64,000 nt of DNA from positions 61,471-125,470 of IMG/VR virus record IMGVR_UViG_3300047561_001367; one strand, 5' to 3'. The DNA comes from a virus (Duplodnaviria > Caudoviricetes). A program made the position numbers and the translations under genes. Under the pieces are notes generated by a model that saw nothing but the letters and a program-made list of their open reading frames with translations, ran no database searches and was not told the DNA's origin. Numbering within the stretch: position 1 is the first letter of the stretch; each line of letters begins with the position of its first letter. Shown piece after piece: positions 6,305 to 61,409 of the stretch.

Positions 6305-9300
6305 ATGATTAAATGGAAATTATTTGATACTAATAGTAATCAGTGGAATGGGCCTGTAAATATTACAGATAATAAACTTACGATAAGGATGTCTCGGGCT
6401 ACTCATTATTATGTAGGCACTGGAGATTTTGGATACCCTGATTCATTAGCGTGGAATAGTCCATCTGTTTGGGATGGTCGTTATGAAAGGTATACCTACG
6501 GGGGCGGAGATATAACAGTTCCAAACACATATTTAGAACCAGAAGGCTATTATGGTAACTATGTAAATTATAAATTAAAAGAGACTACTAGGTTTTCTAA
6601 TGGTCTATTTGTGTTAGAGGCTCAACTTATTGATGTGGGAATTAATGATTGGAGACTCCCATTAATAGATAATATTACAAGCTCAAACCCACAAGTTTTA
6701 CGTTATTTTGGTTATCCAAATCCATATACAACTGATCTACAATATTTTTATTATGGTAGTTTTACATCTAATCCAAGTTTAAATCTACGTTTTAATCCAC
6801 TCACGAATGGTAACCAAACAGGCATTACTAATTTGAGTTTTTGGTATCAAGGAGTTTTAACCGGAACTTTAGAAGTAAAATATCTTCAATATGAATATAA
6901 ATTTAAAGGATTGGATGTTCCTAATAAAATTCAATATAGAGATACTTATAAAATATCTAATTTAATTTCATCTGATGTAGAGTCTGATAATATTTATAAA
7001 CGTCCAATTATGGTTTATTCCTCTAACCCTTCAATTTTTGAAGTAGAAGGGCGGGAGAGAAATAATACCATTAGTTATACGGAGTTTGTTCCGACTAAGA
7101 GTGAATGGACTATTTCTGGAGTATCTACTGGAACTGCAAATTTAATCATAATAAAACCTAGCGATTATTTTCATTTACCTACACAGAAGATTATTCCTAT
7201 AGAGATTTCAAAACGAAATCAAGACGCTAATTTTCAAATAAATCAAAAACCATATTTTTGCCCACCATGGAGAACTGGAGGGTATGATTTAAAATTAGTT
7301 GGTCAAAACGTAAATAATTTCATTTATTCATGTAATAGTGATAAAGTAACTATTACAAATAATGGACTTTTTTATATAAATCCTAATGCAACTACCGGTT
7401 CTTTTGTAATTACTGGTTCGAGTGTTGGTAATAATTTTTATAATGGATGGACGGGTTCAATAACTGGAGTCTTATTATCAGGTTTAGCGCCTTTATTATA
7501 CCCTAAAAGTAAATATACAAATTATTCTTGGTCGAATGGACGTTTATCTAGCACCGTATTAGAATATTATTTTGAATTTTTAACTGGAGATCGTTCTTTT
7601 TCATTCAATTCTAGTTTAGATGTTAATAATGCTCCTTGTAGTAACTATAGCCCAGCAACAACTTTTCTTTACCCTACTGATCCTTATTATGCACCCCCTT
7701 ATCCAATATATACATTACCTCCAATAGTCTATACAAGTTCGAACCCATCCGTTGCTACTATAAATATTACAGGATTAGCTACGTTTTTAAATACGGGTAC
7801 TACAACAATAACCGCCGCTTTTACTGGAAGTAATCAATTTATACCAATATCTAGAAGATTTGAACTAGCTATTGTTAAAATACCAATAATAATTAAAGAA
7901 ACTAATGGATATTATAATAAAAATATTGGTAGCGCCCCTTTCTCTTTAAAATCATCCGTAAATATTGATAGTAGTTTTGTAAATCGTCATCCGAATGCAT
8001 CTACTTTAATTTTTAAAAATTTATTATATAGAAGTTTAAATACTGATATTCTGACGGTTAGCCCTGATGGATTAGTTAATATTGTTGGCGCTGGAAGTAC
8101 AAATATAGAAATATATCAAGAAGAAACGTCGGATACTCTTTCAGCTAGTTTGATGGTACCAATAGCTGTTTCTAAAAATAATGCTGTTATTACCATCCCT
8201 AATCTTAATTATACTAAATTAGTTACTGATAGCACTTTTAATTTAAATGCTACATCTAATAATGATGAAGTATTTTTAGATTATACAAACTCTAATCCTA
8301 GTGTTATAAGTGTCAATTCTACCGGCTTAGTCACAATTCTTAAAGCTGGCACGTCAAATATTATAATTAGCCAAGGCAGTAATTCTAATTGGGATGCGGC
8401 CATTAATAAAACAGCAAATATAACAATAAATAAATTATCTAGCATTTTAAATTATCCAACAATTTCTGGTAAATTTTTAAATTCGCCGCCATTTAATTTA
8501 TCAGTTATTAGTAATAATAATGAACCAATTTATTATAAATCAAATAATTCTGGAATAGCAGCTGTAAATTCCACTGGTAACGTAATTATTTTTAATAGTG
8601 GCCAAACTACTATCGAAGTTTATCAAACTGGAAATAATATTTGGACCCCTACGTCTATAACTCAAAATTTAATAGTTGGAGGATTAGATTTACCGAAATT
8701 TATTACTGGAGAGAAGATTATTATTTCAAATAATGATAATTATAATGGCATATATTGGATAAGAGAAATTACTCCAGATGGTAAACACTATATAGAATGT
8801 TTACCTGATTGTCCATCTGAACCCGTAATAGATGCGACTTTATCAGGTCCAGAAATTTATTCAAATTTCGGCTGGTGTATTGATTTGAATAGAGATGGGA
8901 ATACTCTTGTTGTTGGGGCTCCAAAAGAAAACTACCAATTTAAAAGAAATGTTGGCTTTGTTTATGTTTACAACAGATATGGAGACTCAAATTCTTGGTA
9001 TTTGAATACAAAACTAAGTGGGGCTGCAGCAGTTAAAGATTTAAGAAATTTTGGAAATTTTGGACAAAGCATTGCCATTAATAGCGGTAATATCATCGCC
9101 ATAGGCACGCCGTTCTATAGGCCATCAAGCCAGGAATTTTTACCATTTAATGGGGGCTTAGGCGCAGTTAGAGTCTTTAATTTAAATAATGGTAACTGGA
9201 GTGGTCAAAATATTTTAAGTACACACTCGGGTTCTCAATTTGGATATTCTGTTGATATTAATGATAATGGAAATATATTAGCTATTGGCGCTCCATTTGA

Positions 9301-10875: not shown

Positions 10876-13800
10876 ATGAAAATTACACCTACAATTAATT
10901 TTAATAGCATACCAGAAAAAGAAGTTTTATCTCCAGAATTTTCTGTAGAATTTACGTCTGATAGTGATGGTAAAATTACATATGGTTCTTCAGATGAAAG
11001 CGTGGCCATTATTGACAGAAACGGAATTATTACTATTACAGGCGCGGGGCTCTGTTCGATTGTAATTTTACAATTAGAAACCGATACTTTTGAACCTATA
11101 GCGGTTTCTACATTTTTAACCGTAAAAAAATCAGATCAAGATATTATATTTGACCCTCCAGAAACTACAAAACAAATTTCAGATAAACCTTTTGAAATTG
11201 AAATATACTCAAATGTTGGATTACCAATAGTAGTAGAAAATACTAATGATTCTATTTTTAATCTACAATATATAGGAAATAATAAATATAAAATAACTTT
11301 AAATTCTGTTGGTTCTAGTACAATTATCGTCACTCAAATCGGAAATCAGTCTTTTAATAGTGTTGTTAAAAATTTAAGTATAGATGTTCTTGATACCTCT
11401 TCCTTTTTAGAAGTCACCGCTAATATTAATATTAATAATGATATTTTTAAACATGATGGGTTGGATGAAGTTAATATTATTACTTCTAATCGGGGTAGAT
11501 TTGTAGGAACAAATTCACTAATATTAACTTCGAGTGAAACAGAACGCGGAATAGTAAGAGATATTGGAATATTAAATCTTAATGCTAGTAATTTTATAAA
11601 TGAGATTAAGTCTTTTTCTTCTGAATTATTATGCTGTGATGTCTCTACCAATTCAAGTTCGAGTAGTTCGAGTAGTTCATCGAGTAGTGCATTTATTGAT
11701 GAAAATTTTACAGAAGGTGGTCTTCCTGGTGGAGAAATAAGTACAGAATGTTTTGGTTCTAATCACTTTAAAATCGATACATTGGCTAATTGGACAGATT
11801 TGCCTATTGATAATAGTAGTTCAAAATATGTATTATATTATTTTGCAAGAAAAGGTTCTAAATGGGTGGCGGTTTTATATAAATGTAAAGACGAATCTAT
11901 AGAAGATCCAAATTTAATAAATCCCCCTTTATATAATACAATAGGTAATTTTAATAATCCTATTTTTGAAGGAGGAAATTTAATATCAGATATTCAAGTT
12001 ATTGAAAGTAGTAATCAATGCACATGGCTAAATAAATATAAAGATAATATCACTGATAATAGTTTTATATATCCTAATGAACTACCAAAAAGAAAATATT
12101 ATAATAAAATTAATAAAACACCAATAGGTCCTAAATATACATGTGATGGAACAGCCGGTTCTACGCCAGTAAATATTAATGAAAAAATAACTATGGACTA
12201 TTTAGATGGAGATGTATCAATTAGCATTTGCACTGAAACTATTATTGATAAAAAAATCTTATCTTTTAAAATAGTCCAAAAAGGAGAGACATTTACACAT
12301 TTAGGGGGTATATATGGATTAGCTTTAAAAGCGGCTGCTAATAATAATGGTCAATATTTAGATGATACTGGGTATGGAGAAATGTGTAAAATTAATGTAG
12401 GTTGCAAGAATAGCATTAATAATTTATGTAACGCGGCTTTAAAACCAAATTTTAATCGTAATATTTTTGCGAATGCAGCAGACTTTTTATTAGAAAAAAC
12501 TGCAATTTCATTAAATGGTGATTTAGTACAACCTGGGGTTAATATCAATAATATTAATTATTGTGTTTGGCCAATTAATGAATTTCAAAATTTACCAGCA
12601 ACTCGACCATCTTTACTTACTAATAAATTATTATATGTATGGGATCCATTTGTTTTTAGACTTATATCTTCATTACCATTATCTTCAATATATCCAATAA
12701 GGGATGTACATAGAATTCGAGAAAGCTTAAAGCCGCCTAAAAAATATTCGCAGGAGGGTGTATTTGATGATGGTACACCATGGTACCAACTAAGTTTAGA
12801 ATATACAAATTGGTATAACGCAAACGCTTGTGATACGGAAAGAGACCCTACCTATACAAACGGACTATACGATAAACCAGCCCTATGTGGTGATTTTCAT
12901 CAATCCCCTCCAGGCATAAAAGACGCTTTAAAATGGAAACCACCGACAATAATGTCTATTAAAAATTTTGAAGTTATTGGTATTTTACAACAATATGCAG
13001 ACCATATCGATAGTACTAATGATGGTATCACATTATTTAATTTTAATGAAACGAGTATTCCAAGAGTTACTAGCGATACAGAGATGCTTAGCTCAGCTCT
13101 AGAACATTTTTTTATTATACCACCAAATACTGAGTTATATGCTAATGCAGTCTATCAAGCTTGCGAAGGTTGTTATCAACCTCCAAATTGTGAAATATCG
13201 ATTGGATTTAATAATATTTGTGATAATAACCAGGGTTGGTCAGCTCAATGTAATAATTTATTTTTATATCAAGTAGTCAATAATTTTAATACGTCTGCTT
13301 GTAAGGATATTGATGAATATAATTATGAAAATTATGCACCCCAAAATGATTACAATGGTTGCGATGATTATTCTATAACAGAAGAACTTTCATGTATACA
13401 ACAGGCGGGTCAAGAATTAATAGTTAATACAAATGTAAAAGCTCAAGATATTTTAGCGAATTATGGCTGGAACTGCATTATTTTAGATAATATGGGAATT
13501 GCTAATGGTCCTATGGGTCAACAGGTTCCATTTTTTGATAATAGACCATTATCATGGAGTTATTTTAATAATGGTGGTTATAAACCTGGTTATTCTTCTA
13601 GATGTAGCCATTATTTTAGTGAATTTGTTGGTGAAGAAACTGTAAATGGCATAACATATAGGTTAGGAAACACTTTTTTAGCAGCGTTAAATAATGATAC
13701 TCATCATTTAAAAGTTCGTGGGCATATGTTATCGGATACAGGACCTGGAGAAGCAACATTGAAATATGTTCAGACTAGTGAATCATGCGTTCTTACAGAG

Positions 13801-45582: not shown

Positions 45583-45610
45583 ACGTATAATTACACCTAC
45601 TATATATAAA

Positions 45611-51128: not shown

Positions 51129-51188
51129 TATCCTACTTTACACTTAAAATATAGGGCTGAATTTTATAATTAGTGTAAATAATATATT

Positions 51189-55871: not shown

Positions 55872-58800
55872 TTATTTGTTTTCTTGATTTAGGTTTTCTA
55901 AATGTTGTTCTAAATTCATAGAAGAACTTGTTGATGGATTCCAAGAATAAGGCCGAGGTGGTACATATTTATCGGCTGGTTTAAATGGAGTGTCTGGTTC
56001 TGGAGAAACGTTAAGGTCACTAAATTTATCTCCAGTATTGTTAATAAAATGCCAAGATCTTAATTGTGAATTAGATGGATTATAACTAGACCATTCAGTA
56101 TTCCATAAATATTCATTTCTTTTCCATTTTTGGAATTTAAGGGAATTTTCCCAACTAGCATTATATATAGACTCGTAAGAGAAGGAAGTAAAACCTTTTG
56201 ATTTAACACGATCTGCAGATTGCATTCTTAATGAAATATCTACTTCATCATTAATACCATATCCAGTATAGGTTATTAAAAATTCTGTATCGGTTCCAAC
56301 ATTACCACCATCAGTGCTAATGTACTCTATGTATAAATTAATCCCACTTGGTACAATACCATCCCAAGTTCCAGTGCTTAAGATTTTATGACCATTATCT
56401 TGAGAGTATAAGGTATTATATAAATCGTAAAAATGAGTGTTATATAATGGAGTTGTTTGTTGTAAATGATTTTTTACTTTATATTCCGTGTATGGAATCG
56501 CAGAAATTAAATCTATTTGATTATCAGGATTACCATTATATATACAAGATAAAGGATCTGATGTATTAAAATTAGTACAACCCGTATAATTTTGATAATA
56601 GTCTAAAAGTCCAGTAAAGAAAGATAGATCATCATTAGCACTTTCTGTAGATCCATAATAATCGTCTAATAATCCACTTCCACTTATTGTATAGTAATCA
56701 TTAATAATAGAATTAATTTGGCTAATACTAGAATTTATATTAATATTTATACCATTTGTCATTGTATCTTTTAGATACGCAATACCACTAACAATTTCAC
56801 CTAATAAATTTTGCTTTTCGTTATTAGAAAGTTTAACTAATCCGTTAGTAAATACTGGACTGCTAGAACCTAAATATACTCCACGGACTCTAAGCCCAGA
56901 CGCTATTTTAATATATTCATTTTTTAAGATTTCTAATTTTCTAACGTATCCATTTCCAATCATTATGTCGTTACTAATTCCAGATACTCCAGTGATTGAA
57001 AGTATATTATTCCAAGCTTTAGAATCTTGAGCGGTATGTAATAAGAAACCAGTCCAATTAGTACCATTGGCAGATTTTAGTCCACTCAATGAAGAAGAAC
57101 TAGTACTTGGAATAACTGTCCATTCTTTTCCATTATAACTTATACCGCCCCAATTAGCATTAAGTGGAACGTTTAAAGCAGACCAAGTATTTCCGTTACT
57201 TGAAGTGGCGAACCTTGATCCACTAGAAGGAACTGCGATAAATTTACCATTTCCGTATTCTAAATAGGAAATAGATCCGGTAGTAATTGTATTAAATGCG
57301 AATCCAGTCCAGTTAATTCCATTGGCTGAATGTGAACCGCTTGCGGTAGGATTTTGATTAGAAAATGTGACCCATTTTCCACCACCATAAGCAAGAGTTG
57401 TATTAAAATATGTTGTAGCTATATTATTAGTTCCATATGCAGGTAAAATAACACCGCTATTAAATGGAATAAAATTATTTCCACTCCAAGTCGTTCCGTC
57501 TGTAGAGGTTATAGTACGTGGAGCGTAACCCGTAACAGATCCAGTCGCTATATAGTACCCACCAGAACAACAGGCGGATTCAGACTTAATTCCATTTATT
57601 ATAGTACTATTTTTAGATAAATTTCCAGTAGCACGATATGGTAAACCTAAGTTACCACTTATATAAGAATTACTTCCAGATTTAAATATCCAAGTACTAC
57701 TATTATCAGATGTACCTAATCTTGCATTAATTGTTATATATGGATCATCGACACGATAAGCAAAACCACTATTATTAACTACTAATAAAAGATGATCTTT
57801 TGTTTTTGGCAAGTAGCCTTCAGCAAAAGAACCAAAAGTTCCATTTCCATAAGTTTGATTAGGATAATCATATCTAGTTTGAAATTTATAGACTAAACCA
57901 TTTGGGTTTACTAATGGAAATGACTCCCAAGGACCGTTAGGGCTATTAGAAGCAAACCACGCCACACCCCAACCGGCTGCCAGATCAGCACCATAATCTT
58001 CCAGTATATATATAGGACTTCCACTGCTTAATTTAAGGGCATGTTTATTTATGCCATTGAACCCTGTAAATACAGCCGGACGACCACCTAATCCACTAGG
58101 TATATTATTACCAAAATATGTTGCAAGATTAGGATCAGATTGTGTCCATCCGGTAGTACGCAAAGGTAATGATGAGGTAGAAGACACTGCTGGTTCATAG
58201 GGAAGTCTAACAAATCTTAAATGAATTGGATCACCAGTTGGTGTAAAATTATTTTTGTTTTCAATATATAACTTTGAATATTGCCCTGATCCTTGATATA
58301 GGTCGTCATTAACGTAATAAAATGGAACATCATTAAAATTACCTAATAACCCATATCTAGACAGATTAATAGTGTCTGAATTTAAAAATTCAACTGTTTG
58401 TGGCTGAAAATTACTAGTATATCTAGATGTATTGGAAATTCTTACTTCGTCAATGTAACCCTTAAAGTTTCTGTAAAAACCTGGAGAATCAGCCGCTGTT
58501 CCAATATAGCAAGGCCTACTACTTAATACATCTCCATTATTATAGTATGTATTTTTATTAGAAAGCGTTCCATTAATATAAATTTCCCAGTTAGAGGCGC
58601 GTCTTTGAACGGCTATATGAGTCCATTGGTTTAAAGGAATTGTTCGATTTGAATCAATAGCTCCATTTCTACTACCATCATAGAACAGAACTTCTGATGT
58701 GTTACTTGTAATAAATAGCCCAACACCATTACTACCCCCAGCATTTCTTAAATCAATGATTGCTGTCAAATCATTTTCATCAGCAAGTTGCGTTGGGTAC

Positions 58801-60317
58801 ACCCAACATTCTATTGTAAAATCTTCCCGACCAAAACCAAAAGCTTTATCATCTGAAATAGATAAATAATCTCCGTCTCCATCAAAATATGCAGAACTAG
58901 TTCCGAATTTCTTTTGACCAGACTTAATATTTACATTACCGTGAGGTGTAACTAAGAATTTATACGAAGAGTTGTCTATAAAAGTAGTTGAACCATTAGT
59001 TCCACTCATATGAAGCAATAGACTTAAATTATCTAAAGTTGCGCCATAATTCCATTTCGCCATAGTTGTTTTAGCCTTGCTTAAATCTCTAGCTAAACCA
59101 GTAGTTGTACCCGTAACACGACTAGCACCTACAGCTACCCAACGATTTGTTCCATTAAAAACAATTTTATTAAAATACTCCATTGGAGTATATGCCCCAT
59201 TATTAGTTCCGCTTAGATTTATTACTGACCATGTTACTCCAGTATTTGTTGAAGTGGCACCTTTAGATTCCCGATAATATGTTGGTACTGTTATCCAACG
59301 ACCAGTACCTTGGGCAATACTTGACCATAGCCCAGTAATAGGTAGTGCGTTTGTTACTGTTTGCCATGTTATGCCACTATTTGTTGAAATTGTGATATCT
59401 GCGGTTGGATTATTATAATTATTTTGACCTACTGCTATCCATTTCCCACTAGCATAATCAGCATCTAATAATTTTTGAGTTACTATGTTTTCAACATCTT
59501 TTTGTTGAACCGACTTAACAGTCTTAATATTTTCTACAACAGTATTAAAAGTTCTAGCGGAAGCTTTATGTGGACTGACGTATACAATATTTTGATTTGT
59601 ATTATTTCCAGTTGAAATAACTAATAATCCATCCATAGTTCCGGCGTCATTTGGAGTATATGGAACAATTTTTACTGGATAGTTAAATTTTGGATATTTG
59701 TATACAAAACAACTTTGCGGATATGGCGCGTAAGCATTTACGGGCATATATATACCTTTTTTAGAATCCCATCCGCCAGGTACATATTTAAAATTATTAT
59801 TTTGTTTTAATGAATTTGTAATCGAATTATTTGCTAAATTTACTGGGGATTGGTAAGTAGATAATATGTTAGTAGTATATACCCCCTTTAAACGCTTTGG
59901 AAATGCAAACCTATTATAAGAATACAAGGGGTTGGTATTTTTATTATCAAATTCATGTTTTAAAATTTTACTAAAGAACTTCGCGTCTAAAAAATCTCTA
60001 CGAATTTTACCAATATTAAAATTTTCTAATTCACCGCGGCGCGTAAGAAAAAATTTATCTATTGCTTTGTAATATTGAGTGGCTGCAATAGGTTTAGATG
60101 AGTAGGTAATATGTCCAATATAACCTTTTTTATAATTTGTTTCAGATAAAACAGGGCGTACAAAAGATAAGCATACATTGGGTTTTGTTAAAGTACCCAA
60201 ATTATCTTTAGTTAACACGTAAGAATCCACTTGGATATTTGAACTATCTAAATTAATATTACTAATTAATGATAAGTTACCACCAAGTCCTAATTTTACA
60301 GAATTGCTTTGAGTCAT
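55872..60317 (-). CDS. Tail fibre/receptor-binding protein: BNR-like propeller repeats with inserted LamG/concanavalin A-like domain (1481 aa)
   Basis: S.NG..W repeats, YGNGKFIAV; SAYFDGDGDYL..DFTIECWVYP..WTHIAV.R..GYIDEVRIS. Confidence 0.8.
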   Translation of the reverse strand: MTQSNSVKLGLGGNLSLISNINLDSSNIQVDSYVLTKDNLGTLTKPNVCLSFVRPVLSETNYKKGYIGHITYSSKPIAATQYYKAIDKFFLTRRGELENFNIGKIRRDFLDAKFFSKILKHEFDNKNTNPLYSYNRFAFPKRLKGVYTTNILSTYQSPVNLANNSITNSLKQNNNFKYVPGGWDSKKGIYMPVNAYAPYPQSCFVYKYPKFNYPVKIVPYTPNDAGTMDGLLVISTGNNTNQNIVYVSPHKASARTFNTVVENIKTVKSVQQKDVENIVTQKLLDADYASGKWIAVGQNNYNNPTADITISTNSGITWQTVTNALPITGLWSSIAQGTGRWITVPTYYRESKGATSTNTGVTWSVINLSGTNNGAYTPMEYFNKIVFNGTNRWVAVGASRVTGTTTGLARDLSKAKTTMAKWNYGATLDNLSLLLHMSGTNGSTTFIDNSSYKFLVTPHGNVNIKSGQKKFGTSSAYFDGDGDYLSISDDKAFGFGREDFTIECWVYPTQLADENDLTAIIDLRNAGGSNGVGLFITSNTSEVLFYDGSRNGAIDSNRTIPLNQWTHIAVQRRASNWEIYINGTLSNKNTYYNNGDVLSSRPCYIGTAADSPGFYRNFKGYIDEVRISNTSRYTSNFQPQTVEFLNSDTINLSRYGLLGNFNDVPFYYVNDDLYQGSGQYSKLYIENKNNFTPTGDPIHLRFVRLPYEPAVSSTSSLPLRTTGWTQSDPNLATYFGNNIPSGLGGRPAVFTGFNGINKHALKLSSGSPIYILEDYGADLAAGWGVAWFASNSPNGPWESFPLVNPNGLVYKFQTRYDYPNQTYGNGTFGSFAEGYLPKTKDHLLLVVNNSGFAYRVDDPYITINARLGTSDNSSTWIFKSGSNSYISGNLGLPYRATGNLSKNSTIINGIKSESACCSGGYYIATGSVTGYAPRTITSTDGTTWSGNNFIPFNSGVILPAYGTNNIATTYFNTTLAYGGGKWVTFSNQNPTASGSHSANGINWTGFAFNTITTGSISYLEYGNGKFIAVPSSGSRFATSSNGNTWSALNVPLNANWGGISYNGKEWTVIPSTSSSSLSGLKSANGTNWTGFLLHTAQDSKAWNNILSITGVSGISNDIMIGNGYVRKLEILKNEYIKIASGLRVRGVYLGSSSPVFTNGLVKLSNNEKQNLLGEIVSGIAYLKDTMTNGINININSSISQINSIINDYYTISGSGLLDDYYGSTESANDDLSFFTGLLDYYQNYTGCTNFNTSDPLSCIYNGNPDNQIDLISAIPYTEYKVKNHLQQTTPLYNTHFYDLYNTLYSQDNGHKILSTGTWDGIVPSGINLYIEYISTDGGNVGTDTEFLITYTGYGINDEVDISLRMQSADRVKSKGFTSFSYESIYNASWENSLKFQKWKRNEYLWNTEWSSYNPSNSQLRSWHFINNTGDKFSDLNVSPEPDTPFKPADKYVPPRPYSWNPSTSSSMNLEQHLENLNQENK

Positions 60318-60335
60318 TTAACCAACAATAGGTGT

Positions 60336-60637
60336 TTATTTATGCACCCCTATTACCAGGGCCATAAAATGCTTTCCTACCTCTTATCAAAGTTGTTATC
60401 GTTAGACATTTTATTTCTAACATCTCTACGTCACCGTAGAGTTCAGACTATATCTTGTTACTACTTTCGTAGTAATCGGGGCGCTCGTGTTTGGTTTATT
60501 GTTTGCGTTACTCACCAATTAGTCGTTGCACCTTCTACATACTTTTTGTACGCTTATGTAGCTTGGCTCAGGATTGTCTTATTGCTAAGGTTTCCCCTGA
60601 ATTCACCCCGAAAGGTCATTTTAAATTTTAAAGAACT
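60336..60637 (-). ncRNA. Group I ribozyme (catalytic core P3-P9, IA-like), intergenic, not interrupting a gene
   Basis: Minus strand: P AAUUCAGGGGAAA, Q AAUCCUGAGC, R GCAACGACUA, S AAGAUAUAGUC; P3 CGGGGUG/CGCCCCG; P5 GCAA, P8 GAAA and P9 GUGA tetraloops; candidate omega-G at 60388. Confidence 0.9.
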
Positions 60638-60644
60638 ATTCTAT

Positions 60645-60650
60645 TTACAC
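60645..60650 (-). promoter_or_regulatory. GTGTAA late-type promoter motif in front of the ribozyme
   Basis: Same hexamer found 8-10 nt before several structural-gene starts. Confidence 0.6.
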
Positions 60651-60676
60651 ACGTTATAAGAAATGCGCAATAATTT

Positions 60677-61351
60677 TTATATATTATTTAAAATATTTAG
60701 CATTAAAGACTCCATACTAGGAGTATCATAACACTCTTCAGAATCTTTATTTGGCGAATCTATGATTGCTTTTCTTAAACTTGCAACTTCATCTTTAGCC
60801 GTTTCAGAAGGTTGTGACTGATACCAGTTTATTAAAGCTCGTATTAATTCGTATATACTTATTACCGAAGCAATAATATTTGCACGGTATAAGAGTACTT
60901 TTAAATTTATAAATTTATAGGCATTGTACCATGCTAATTTTTTTGCGGCGCATTGTGCTGCATAAATTGTTCCTACTTTGATATTTACGCATTTTCTTTC
61001 TATCAAGCTTGCGTCTTCCAAAGACTTACTAACGATTGAATCAAGCGGAGCTTTTTGAGCTTTTAACTCGCCTAGTTTTGATAATTTACTTTGGCATTCA
61101 TCCGTTAGAGATTTCCCTTGCTTATATAAGCTCTCTATTTCTTCATCTAGTGCTTTAATTTCGTCCTCGAATTTATAGCATTTATCTTTTGTCAAATTTG
61201 CCAAATCTTTGCATGCGTCTCTTTCTCTTGTTAGTCTTTCAAGCTCCCTATTAGCTTCCGCTCTTGCATTTAATAATTGTGACGTAGCATCTATTATCAA
61301 AAAAGGGAGTGATAATAATATAGCTCTTAATAAAAATGCTAAAAATGGCAT
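60677..61351 (-). CDS. Coiled-coil protein with two hydrophobic segments
   Basis: ORF track; GTGTAA 9 nt upstream (61361-61366). Confidence 0.6.
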   Translation of the reverse strand: MPFLAFLLRAILLSLPFLIIDATSQLLNARAEANRELERLTRERDACKDLANLTKDKCYKFEDEIKALDEEIESLYKQGKSLTDECQSKLSKLGELKAQKAPLDSIVSKSLEDASLIERKCVNIKVGTIYAAQCAAKKLAWYNAYKFINLKVLLYRANIIASVISIYELIRALINWYQSQPSETAKDEVASLRKAIIDSPNKDSEECYDTPSMESLMLNILNNI

Positions 61352-61409
61352 ATTTATTTATTACACAAATTTTTCTTTACAATCTTAAAAATGTTTATAC
61401 CATAAAAAT

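Follow-up and report, generated by a model that had tools for sequence, protein, structure and literature searches.

The window analysed here is a 64,000-nt stretch of a Caudoviricetes genome (IMG/VR record IMGVR_UViG_3300047561_001367), in which two co-directional genes encoding proteins of 224 and 1481 aa flank a group I ribozyme on the minus strand. An Rfam scan of the window matched the group I intron model RF00028 at 60672-60424 (-) with 81.6 bits (E 3.5e-19, model positions 1-253), the cut-off of the model being 50 bits, and this was the sole group I intron match across the 125-kb viral contig. The ribozyme is placed between the stop codon of the 224-aa ORF (60677) and the ATG of the 1481-aa ORF (60317), so that no gene is interrupted and there are no exons to join. 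The main features of the locus are as follows.

55872 to 60317, minus strand: 1481-aa gene with a LamG-type insert, its message preceded by the ribozyme
60388, minus strand: omega-G, 3' splice site, in the context GAUAACAACUUUG, homologous to GAUAACAAAAUG of phiCP13O
60401 to 60611, minus strand: group I catalytic core, from Rfam RF00028 and covariation in 30 sequences
60677 to 61351, minus strand: 224-aa coiled-coil ORF, an insertion, preceded by a GTGTAA motif of its own

For the 1481-aa protein family, searches of Pfam, PHROGs, PDB sequences and the ESM Atlas pointed to no function beyond the LamG insert. Protein searches yielded homologues, the DNA of which was then examined; wherever this DNA included the upstream flank, the gene was preceded by a gap of about 360-410 nt with the ribozyme in it, and the link between ribozyme and gene family persists at 27-48% protein identity among distinct relatives. 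Further members of the class were found by scanning viral contigs with a 16-mer from the core. Most relatives have, as the next gene upstream, an ATPase gene in divergent orientation, the ATG of which lies only 30-60 nt from the ribozyme, and the 224-aa ORF is an insertion compared with the closest relative (L146) and with most others. The product of this ORF has a hydrophobic N-terminus and a coiled-coil-like sequence, and a similar gene is found at the same position in L119, where both the ribozyme and the large gene are lacking. The ribozyme occurs three times on the phage contig IMGVR_UViG_3300042507_006854 (L118, L131), in each case before a paralogue from this protein family (621, 914 and 539 aa), and the contig of another class member (L074) encodes a tmRNA at 11653-12040 (+) (Rfam RF00023, 105 bits).

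The letters that an initial annotation of this DNA had quoted are present on the minus strand where it had placed them. The helices P3 to P9, the guanosine site in P7 and J8/7, by which the core of group I introns is recognized, are all found in the ribozyme, on the minus strand, at the following positions.

60611-60604 with 60483-60476, minus strand: P3
60600-60595 with 60573-60568, minus strand: P4
within 60401 to 60611, minus strand: P5 with a GCAA loop, P6/P6a and a P7.1-type insert
60524-60520 with 60450-60446, minus strand: P7
60475-60469 with 60464-60458, minus strand: P8
60441-60435 with 60430-60424, minus strand: P9
60421-60416 with 60406-60401, minus strand: P9.1

In an alignment of 30 sequences (A4), P3, P4, P8, P9 and P9.1 covary and P7 is invariant. 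The ribozyme ends in a terminal omega-G, the column of which is nearly invariant in A4. The placement of this residue at 60388, already proposed in the initial annotation, fits the end of the homologous intron of the Clostridium phage phiCP13O, which has a 71% identical core, splits the tape-measure gene, and has a 3' end reading GAUAACAAAAUG followed by the coding sequence of exon 2. No homing endonuclease ORF is encoded in the window ribozyme. The Rfam scan of the window gave RF00028 only and no match to GIR1, the lariat-capping ribozyme, a family which Rfam presumably includes; a c-di-GMP-II aptamer or riboswitch was likewise absent from the window matches, assuming that the library holds the aptamer model, and the DNA directly 5' of the ribozyme consists of an AU-rich promoter region only, with no aptamer. 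Three relatives (L125, L126 and L128) are clear family members with an intact core, yet gave no RF00028 match even at E 0.001; standard covariance-model scans under-count or mis-describe this ribozyme class.

A promoter-like motif stands directly in front of the ribozyme and recurs elsewhere in the window.

60628 to 60636, minus strand: GUUCUUUAA, boxA-like, presumed 5' end of the ribozyme RNA, near-invariant in an 11-sequence alignment (A2)
60645 to 60650, minus strand: promoter-like GTGTAA, 8 nt ahead of the conserved GUUCUUUAA
3412-3417 (plus strand), 45591-45596 (minus), 51138-51143 (minus), 51173-51178 (plus) and 61361-61366 (minus): GTGTAA before operon-first genes

The hexamer lies 8-10 nt ahead of the ATG of these five operon-first genes, about 0.04 such placements being expected by chance; its total count in the window is not enriched, the placement alone is. 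About 27 of 30 class members have GTGTAA at a fixed spacing (8-9 nt) before GUUCUUUAA, which is itself found in most members and has a single C variant (L141) in A2. In L144 the position of GTGTAA is taken by GTATAAT, some members carry TGTATAAT instead, and in L044 and L074 GTGTAA has a divergent partner, TTACAC, which sits 10 nt from the ATG of the oppositely oriented gene. A scan with the sigma-70 consensus gave no sites in front of the ribozyme. GTGTAA resembles a phage promoter that would give leaderless or near-leaderless mRNAs and, because it stands directly in front, the ribozyme RNA most likely starts about 20 nt ahead of P3. The sequence GUUCUUUAA resembles the boxA of rRNA operons, and L141 (about 632-648) reads UGCUCUUUAACAAUUUA, which we take to match the boxA of E. 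coli; such an element could prevent Rho-dependent termination within the long untranslated leader. Members with TGTATAAT promoters (L213) lack it.

A long-range helix connects the start of the ribozyme with the start region of the large gene.

60614 to 60618, minus strand: internal guide sequence UGACC, 5' strand of the long-range helix read as P1 (A4 columns 10-14)
60319 to 60323, minus strand: GGUUA, 3' strand of the same helix (A4 columns 428-432), with the predicted 5' splice site after U60320

The pairing of UGACC with GGUUA was first proposed by RNAalifold on 11 family members, in which both sites are invariant. It is formed in 30 of the 30 sequences of A4, with changes on both sides at four of the five pairs, in an alignment that leans toward the helix because the 3' ends of the aligned pieces were set by the analyst at the pairing site. 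The pair at columns 12-430 is AU in 14 sequences, GC in 12, UA in three and CG in one, and the guide/site combinations include UGACC/GGUUA, UGUCC/GGAUA, AGUCC/GGAUU, UGGUC/GGCUA, AGCGU/ACGUU, UGGUC/GACUA, UGGCC/GGCUA and UGGGC/GCCUA. Permuting the partners among the nine distinct combinations gave p ~2.5e-5 for the observed pairing, and an upstream complement of the guide occurred within 150 nt in only 8 of 30 class members, at scattered distances; the permutation test and this upstream control lessen the selection bias of A4 and do not remove it. At the fifth pair, with G60617 on the ribozyme strand and U60320 opposite, 29 of 30 sequences have a G.U wobble. Single-sequence duplex energies of the 5-bp helix are non-significant alone, the signal being comparative. 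Together, the covariation shows that the guide pairs with GGUUA and that G60617.U60320 is a conserved wobble.

The guide has 5 nt and is sited 2-3 nt ahead of P3 in the 30 relatives (a 2-nt spacer, UU, in the window), and GGUUA ends 2 nt ahead of the ATG of the 1481-aa gene, giving the junction GGUU|AAAUG. The G of the wobble is on the 5' side of the letters that bind the exon, and the 3' end of these letters enters the core. In the class members the pairing site always precedes A-rich sequence, with the ATG 0-35 nt further on; in the window the wobble U is followed by AAA. In phiCP13O, tape-measure exon 1 closes with GGCU followed by AAAC, with GGUC a few nt downstream; read by eye, GGCU and GGUC probably form the P1 of this intron, and the L074 pair, GGCU|AAAC with GGUC, is identical in letters to this putative P1. 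The long-range helix is read as P1 because of the wobble polarity, the A-rich 3' context and the letter identity with phiCP13O, and with this assignment U60320 would be the last nucleotide before a 5' splice site that lies 3' of omega-G, in a permuted topology opened in the P1 loop and without P2. The arrangement found, a guide pairing 3' of omega-G with a U.G at the junction, is that of permuted intron-exon RNAs; a P1 with a U.G from a 5' exon upstream of the core is not found in the class, the window alone having a separate upstream candidate. As a P1 the helix is unusual in having only 4 bp on the exon side and a linker of only 2-3 nt to P3. A P10 between the first bases of the leader and the letters 5' of the guide would have at most 2 bp. 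The sequence GUUCUUUAA was also considered as a guide for the leader start and was rejected, as no covariation was found.

The exception to the wobble is L223, in which G-C replaces G.U. In this member (about 7628-7998 (-) and downstream) the P1 site is followed by a terminator-like hairpin (GCGAGAG...CUCUCGC) that runs into a stretch of U, and the gene has a new GTGTAA promoter of its own. The ribozyme unit of L223 is uncoupled from the gene, being either in decay or kept for its RNA products.

The stretch between omega-G and the predicted 5' splice site forms a leader with structure of its own.

60320 to 60387, minus strand: 68-nt leader, the predicted circle "exon", set by the positions of omega-G and P1
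60339 to 60368, minus strand: inner long hairpin with a GGUAAUA loop, containing the second hairpin of the initial annotation (60361-60348)
60364 to 60387, minus strand: first hairpin of the initial annotation ("P1-like"), -1.1 kcal/mol, not conserved
60376 to 60381, minus strand: GGUAGG, 5' strand of the outer stem, pairing with CCUAUU at 60332-60327, with covariation

RNAalifold on 12 leaders returned no consensus structure because the leader types are too divergent, and named structures were therefore tested on these 12 leaders instead. The leader folds as a rod with free ends of 6 and 7 nt, an architecture common to all four leader types. In the outer stem 87.5% of cells are paired and four pairs are changed on both sides; its covariation is 0.74 versus 0.30 in shuffles (0/500) and beats all slid controls. 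The inner long hairpin is present in the minimum-energy folds of all close relatives, with stem variants, by eye, of CCCU/GGGG, UUGC/GCAA, UUAC/GUAA and UCUC/GAGG. The fold energy of the leader is unexceptional (z -0.8). A 9-codon ORF, MALVIGVHK, is located in the leader at 60336-60365 (-), 13 nt after AAGAGG; L125 has a similar leader ORF with a GUG start (MFSVIEVHK), whereas the frame stops after 3 codons in other relatives, so that the conservation looks RNA-level.

Together, it is suggested that the locus is best explained by a stand-alone group I ribozyme with a permuted intron-exon topology, a reading held to be probable rather than assured. Cleavage, circle and transcription start are all predicted from the sequences. 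The RNA would start about 8-9 nt after the GTGTAA promoter motif, near GUUCUUUAA (60636), and would carry in order the guide UGACC, P3 with no P2 before it, the full core, omega-G at 60388, the 68-nt rod leader and GGUU|AAAUG. With the helix between guide and GGUUA acting as P1, free GTP or guanosine would attack after U60320 once this site has been transcribed; this first cleavage would free an mRNA beginning G-AA-AUG and unmask the start region. Through its newly formed 3'-OH, U60320 would then attack at omega-G and be joined to A60387, the rod fold of the leader bringing both splice sites together, and the second step would yield a 68-nt circle (60387-60320), with the predicted junction ...UUGUUGGUU|AUAAGAGG..., and a linear ribozyme. 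The broader proposal, for which the chances are put as even, is that a widespread group I class of aquatic phages is naturally permuted, has its own promoters and uses cellular GTP for the release of structural-gene mRNAs 2-35 nt before the start codon, each reaction ejecting a circle of 64-145 nt. Members with TATAAT-type promoters (L154, L205 and L213) have predicted splice sites well upstream of the start region; in L154 a Shine-Dalgarno-like AAGGA precedes the ATG and the predicted splice site lies about 30 nt before the ATG, so that the ribosome site would remain on the processed mRNA.

The initial annotation had already proposed a permuted group I ribozyme with its 5' splice site 3' of omega-G and a G-added 5' end for the mRNA of the gene, an idea which the 30 relatives support, whereas the elements it had named for this role do not hold. 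It had read 60387-60364 as P1, with a splice-site U.G after U60379, and 60361-60348 as P2. The pairing can be drawn, with the U.G beside the loop, and stands out as an isolated 24-mer (z -3), and the P2 of phiCP13O is also capped by a GUAA loop. However, this first hairpin (AUAAGAGGU/GCAUUUUAU) alone reaches only -1.1 kcal/mol and is missing from the minimum-energy fold, both in the interval of the annotation and in the whole leader, where it is outcompeted by another fold in which its 3' strand lengthens the second hairpin (UUUUAUGGCCC...GGGG-UGCAUAAA). The U.G becomes U-A in L127 and L130 and C-G in L125, the hairpin is missing from leader types B and C, and over the 12 leaders the two hairpins have 50.7% of cells paired, no better than slid controls. 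The second hairpin is real as the tip of the longer conserved hairpin with the GGUAAUA loop, and is not P2. These elements are thus highly improbable as P1 and P2. The 9-nt exon that followed from them is replaced by one of 68 nt (60387-60320), inside which both hairpins fall, and the steric objection that the annotation had raised against a circle is thereby removed. A decaying selfish intron, stranded between genes and now without function, would agree with the lack of a homing endonuclease and of an interrupted gene; it is given a very slight chance, since compensatory changes have kept the core while the adjacent protein diverged to 27-48% identity, and since one phage contig has three copies, each before a paralogue.

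Two further readings concern the long-range helix and the upstream flank. Site-specific hydrolysis at the 3' splice site is a known side reaction of group I RNAs, and the helix might be a structural clamp or P2 substitute that masks the start region and is not a substrate, the RNA undergoing only hydrolysis at omega-G, with an mRNA from A60387, or no catalysis at all. The conservation of both the helix and omega-G would agree with such a clamp, and the lariat-capping ribozyme, as discussed in PMC8637638, also has an end-closing helix and processes a downstream mRNA. This reading is unlikely, as it leaves unexplained why the G.U is fixed in 29 of 30 sequences while neighbouring pairs vary freely, as well as the U|AAA context and the identity with the P1 letters of phiCP13O. 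The absence of P1 and P2 in front of P3, as described in the initial annotation, is true for the class, whereas the window itself has an upstream pairing from which an ordinary, non-permuted intron could be drawn.

60647 to 60668, minus strand: window-specific P1/P10-like pairing, GCGCAU (60668-60663) with GUGUGU (60652-60647) and UCUUAU (60661-60656) with AUAAGA (60387-60382)

Such an intron would be spliced after U60663 from RNA reading through the 224-aa gene, with the canonical junction ...GCGCAU|AUAAGAGG... (60663|60387). It would have a 6-bp P1 with a terminal U.G and a 6-bp P10, both correctly placed; the P10 is kept through a wobble in L124, three substitutions versus L146 each create P1 pairs, and the RF00028 alignment is full length. 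No terminator-like site was found between the 224-aa ORF and the ribozyme, so that read-through RNA might splice conventionally. On the other hand, the splice site follows the stop codon by 14 nt, which would leave the exons without coding sequence; the pairing is broken in L146 (GUAAAU), which has no upstream gene, and is unrecognisable in most relatives; GUGUGU overlaps the promoter-like motif, which is conserved for other reasons; and the Rfam alignments of the 5' hairpin disagree between homologues and are uninformative. That the window element is simply an ordinary intron is considered quite unlikely, and conventional splicing may be a minor route in the window, possibly alongside the permuted reaction.

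Group I ribozymes are textbook selfish introns, and to our knowledge only one bacterial case has been turned into a gene-control device. If the permuted reading is true, this chemistry would have a new natural use in a conserved class of phage RNAs, in which back-splicing makes mRNA 5' ends and small RNA circles; the class would also offer a natural template for circular-RNA technology, which is now hand-built, and add a new layer of phage late-gene control. Addition of a G to the mRNA and unmasking of the start region would tie expression to the folding of the ribozyme and to the GTP supply, and the ejected circular RNA of 64-145 nt may have a role of its own. The three clear family members without any Rfam match indicate that covariance models miss such elements.

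A natural permuted group I ribozyme was not found in bacteria or phages in the literature searched, the coverage of which is incomplete; in this literature, reports of group I RNA that is permuted in nature are limited to a coral mitochondrial intron, and the one domesticated bacterial group I ribozyme that it describes is the c-di-GMP-controlled leader of Clostridioides difficile. In the engineered permuted intron-exon constructs derived from the T4 td and Anabaena pre-tRNA group I introns, a single RNA likewise carries the 3' splice site ahead of the 5' splice site, the sequence between them becomes a circle and the flanks leave as linear pieces, and the same would be expected of the phage ribozyme. 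The latter differs in being natural, in having its own promoter, in being broken in the P1 loop without a P2, and in that a whole mRNA hangs from its 5' splice site, so that the processed mRNA and not the circle may be the main product. The giant ND5-717 intron of mushroom-coral mitochondria, as described in PMC8637638 (citing Chi et al. 2019), also comes from a group I precursor that is permuted in nature and resolved through back-splicing; in the coral, a coding gene that is split on the circular genome of the organelle is restored, whereas the phage ribozyme would enclose a small non-coding leader and make the 5' end of a phage mRNA. GIR1, from the twin-ribozyme introns of Didymium and Naegleria, is similarly group I-derived, precedes an mRNA and defines its 5' end, and has a 5'-3' helix, but it has a remodelled core and catalyses a branching reaction, in contrast to the standard core, omega-G and P1-type G.U of the phage ribozyme. 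The allosteric group I ribozyme controlled by c-di-GMP-II in a 5' UTR of C. difficile, reviewed in PMC3984707, is also a domesticated ribozyme of a 5' leader, and whether its message can be translated depends on the position that GTP attacks; the phage ribozyme has no aptamer and would have a permuted instead of a canonical order. Natural circularly permuted group II introns of bacteria (Roth et al. 2021, PMC8637638) are also stand-alone, permuted and self-splicing and yield small RNA circles, but belong to another ribozyme class with another chemistry and do not abut an ORF. Among the canonical phage introns of this lineage, the tape-measure intron of phiCP13O shares the 71% identical core, the omega-G context and the P1 letters, whereas introns of this type split a coding gene and have an upstream P1, a P2 hairpin and an endonuclease ORF.
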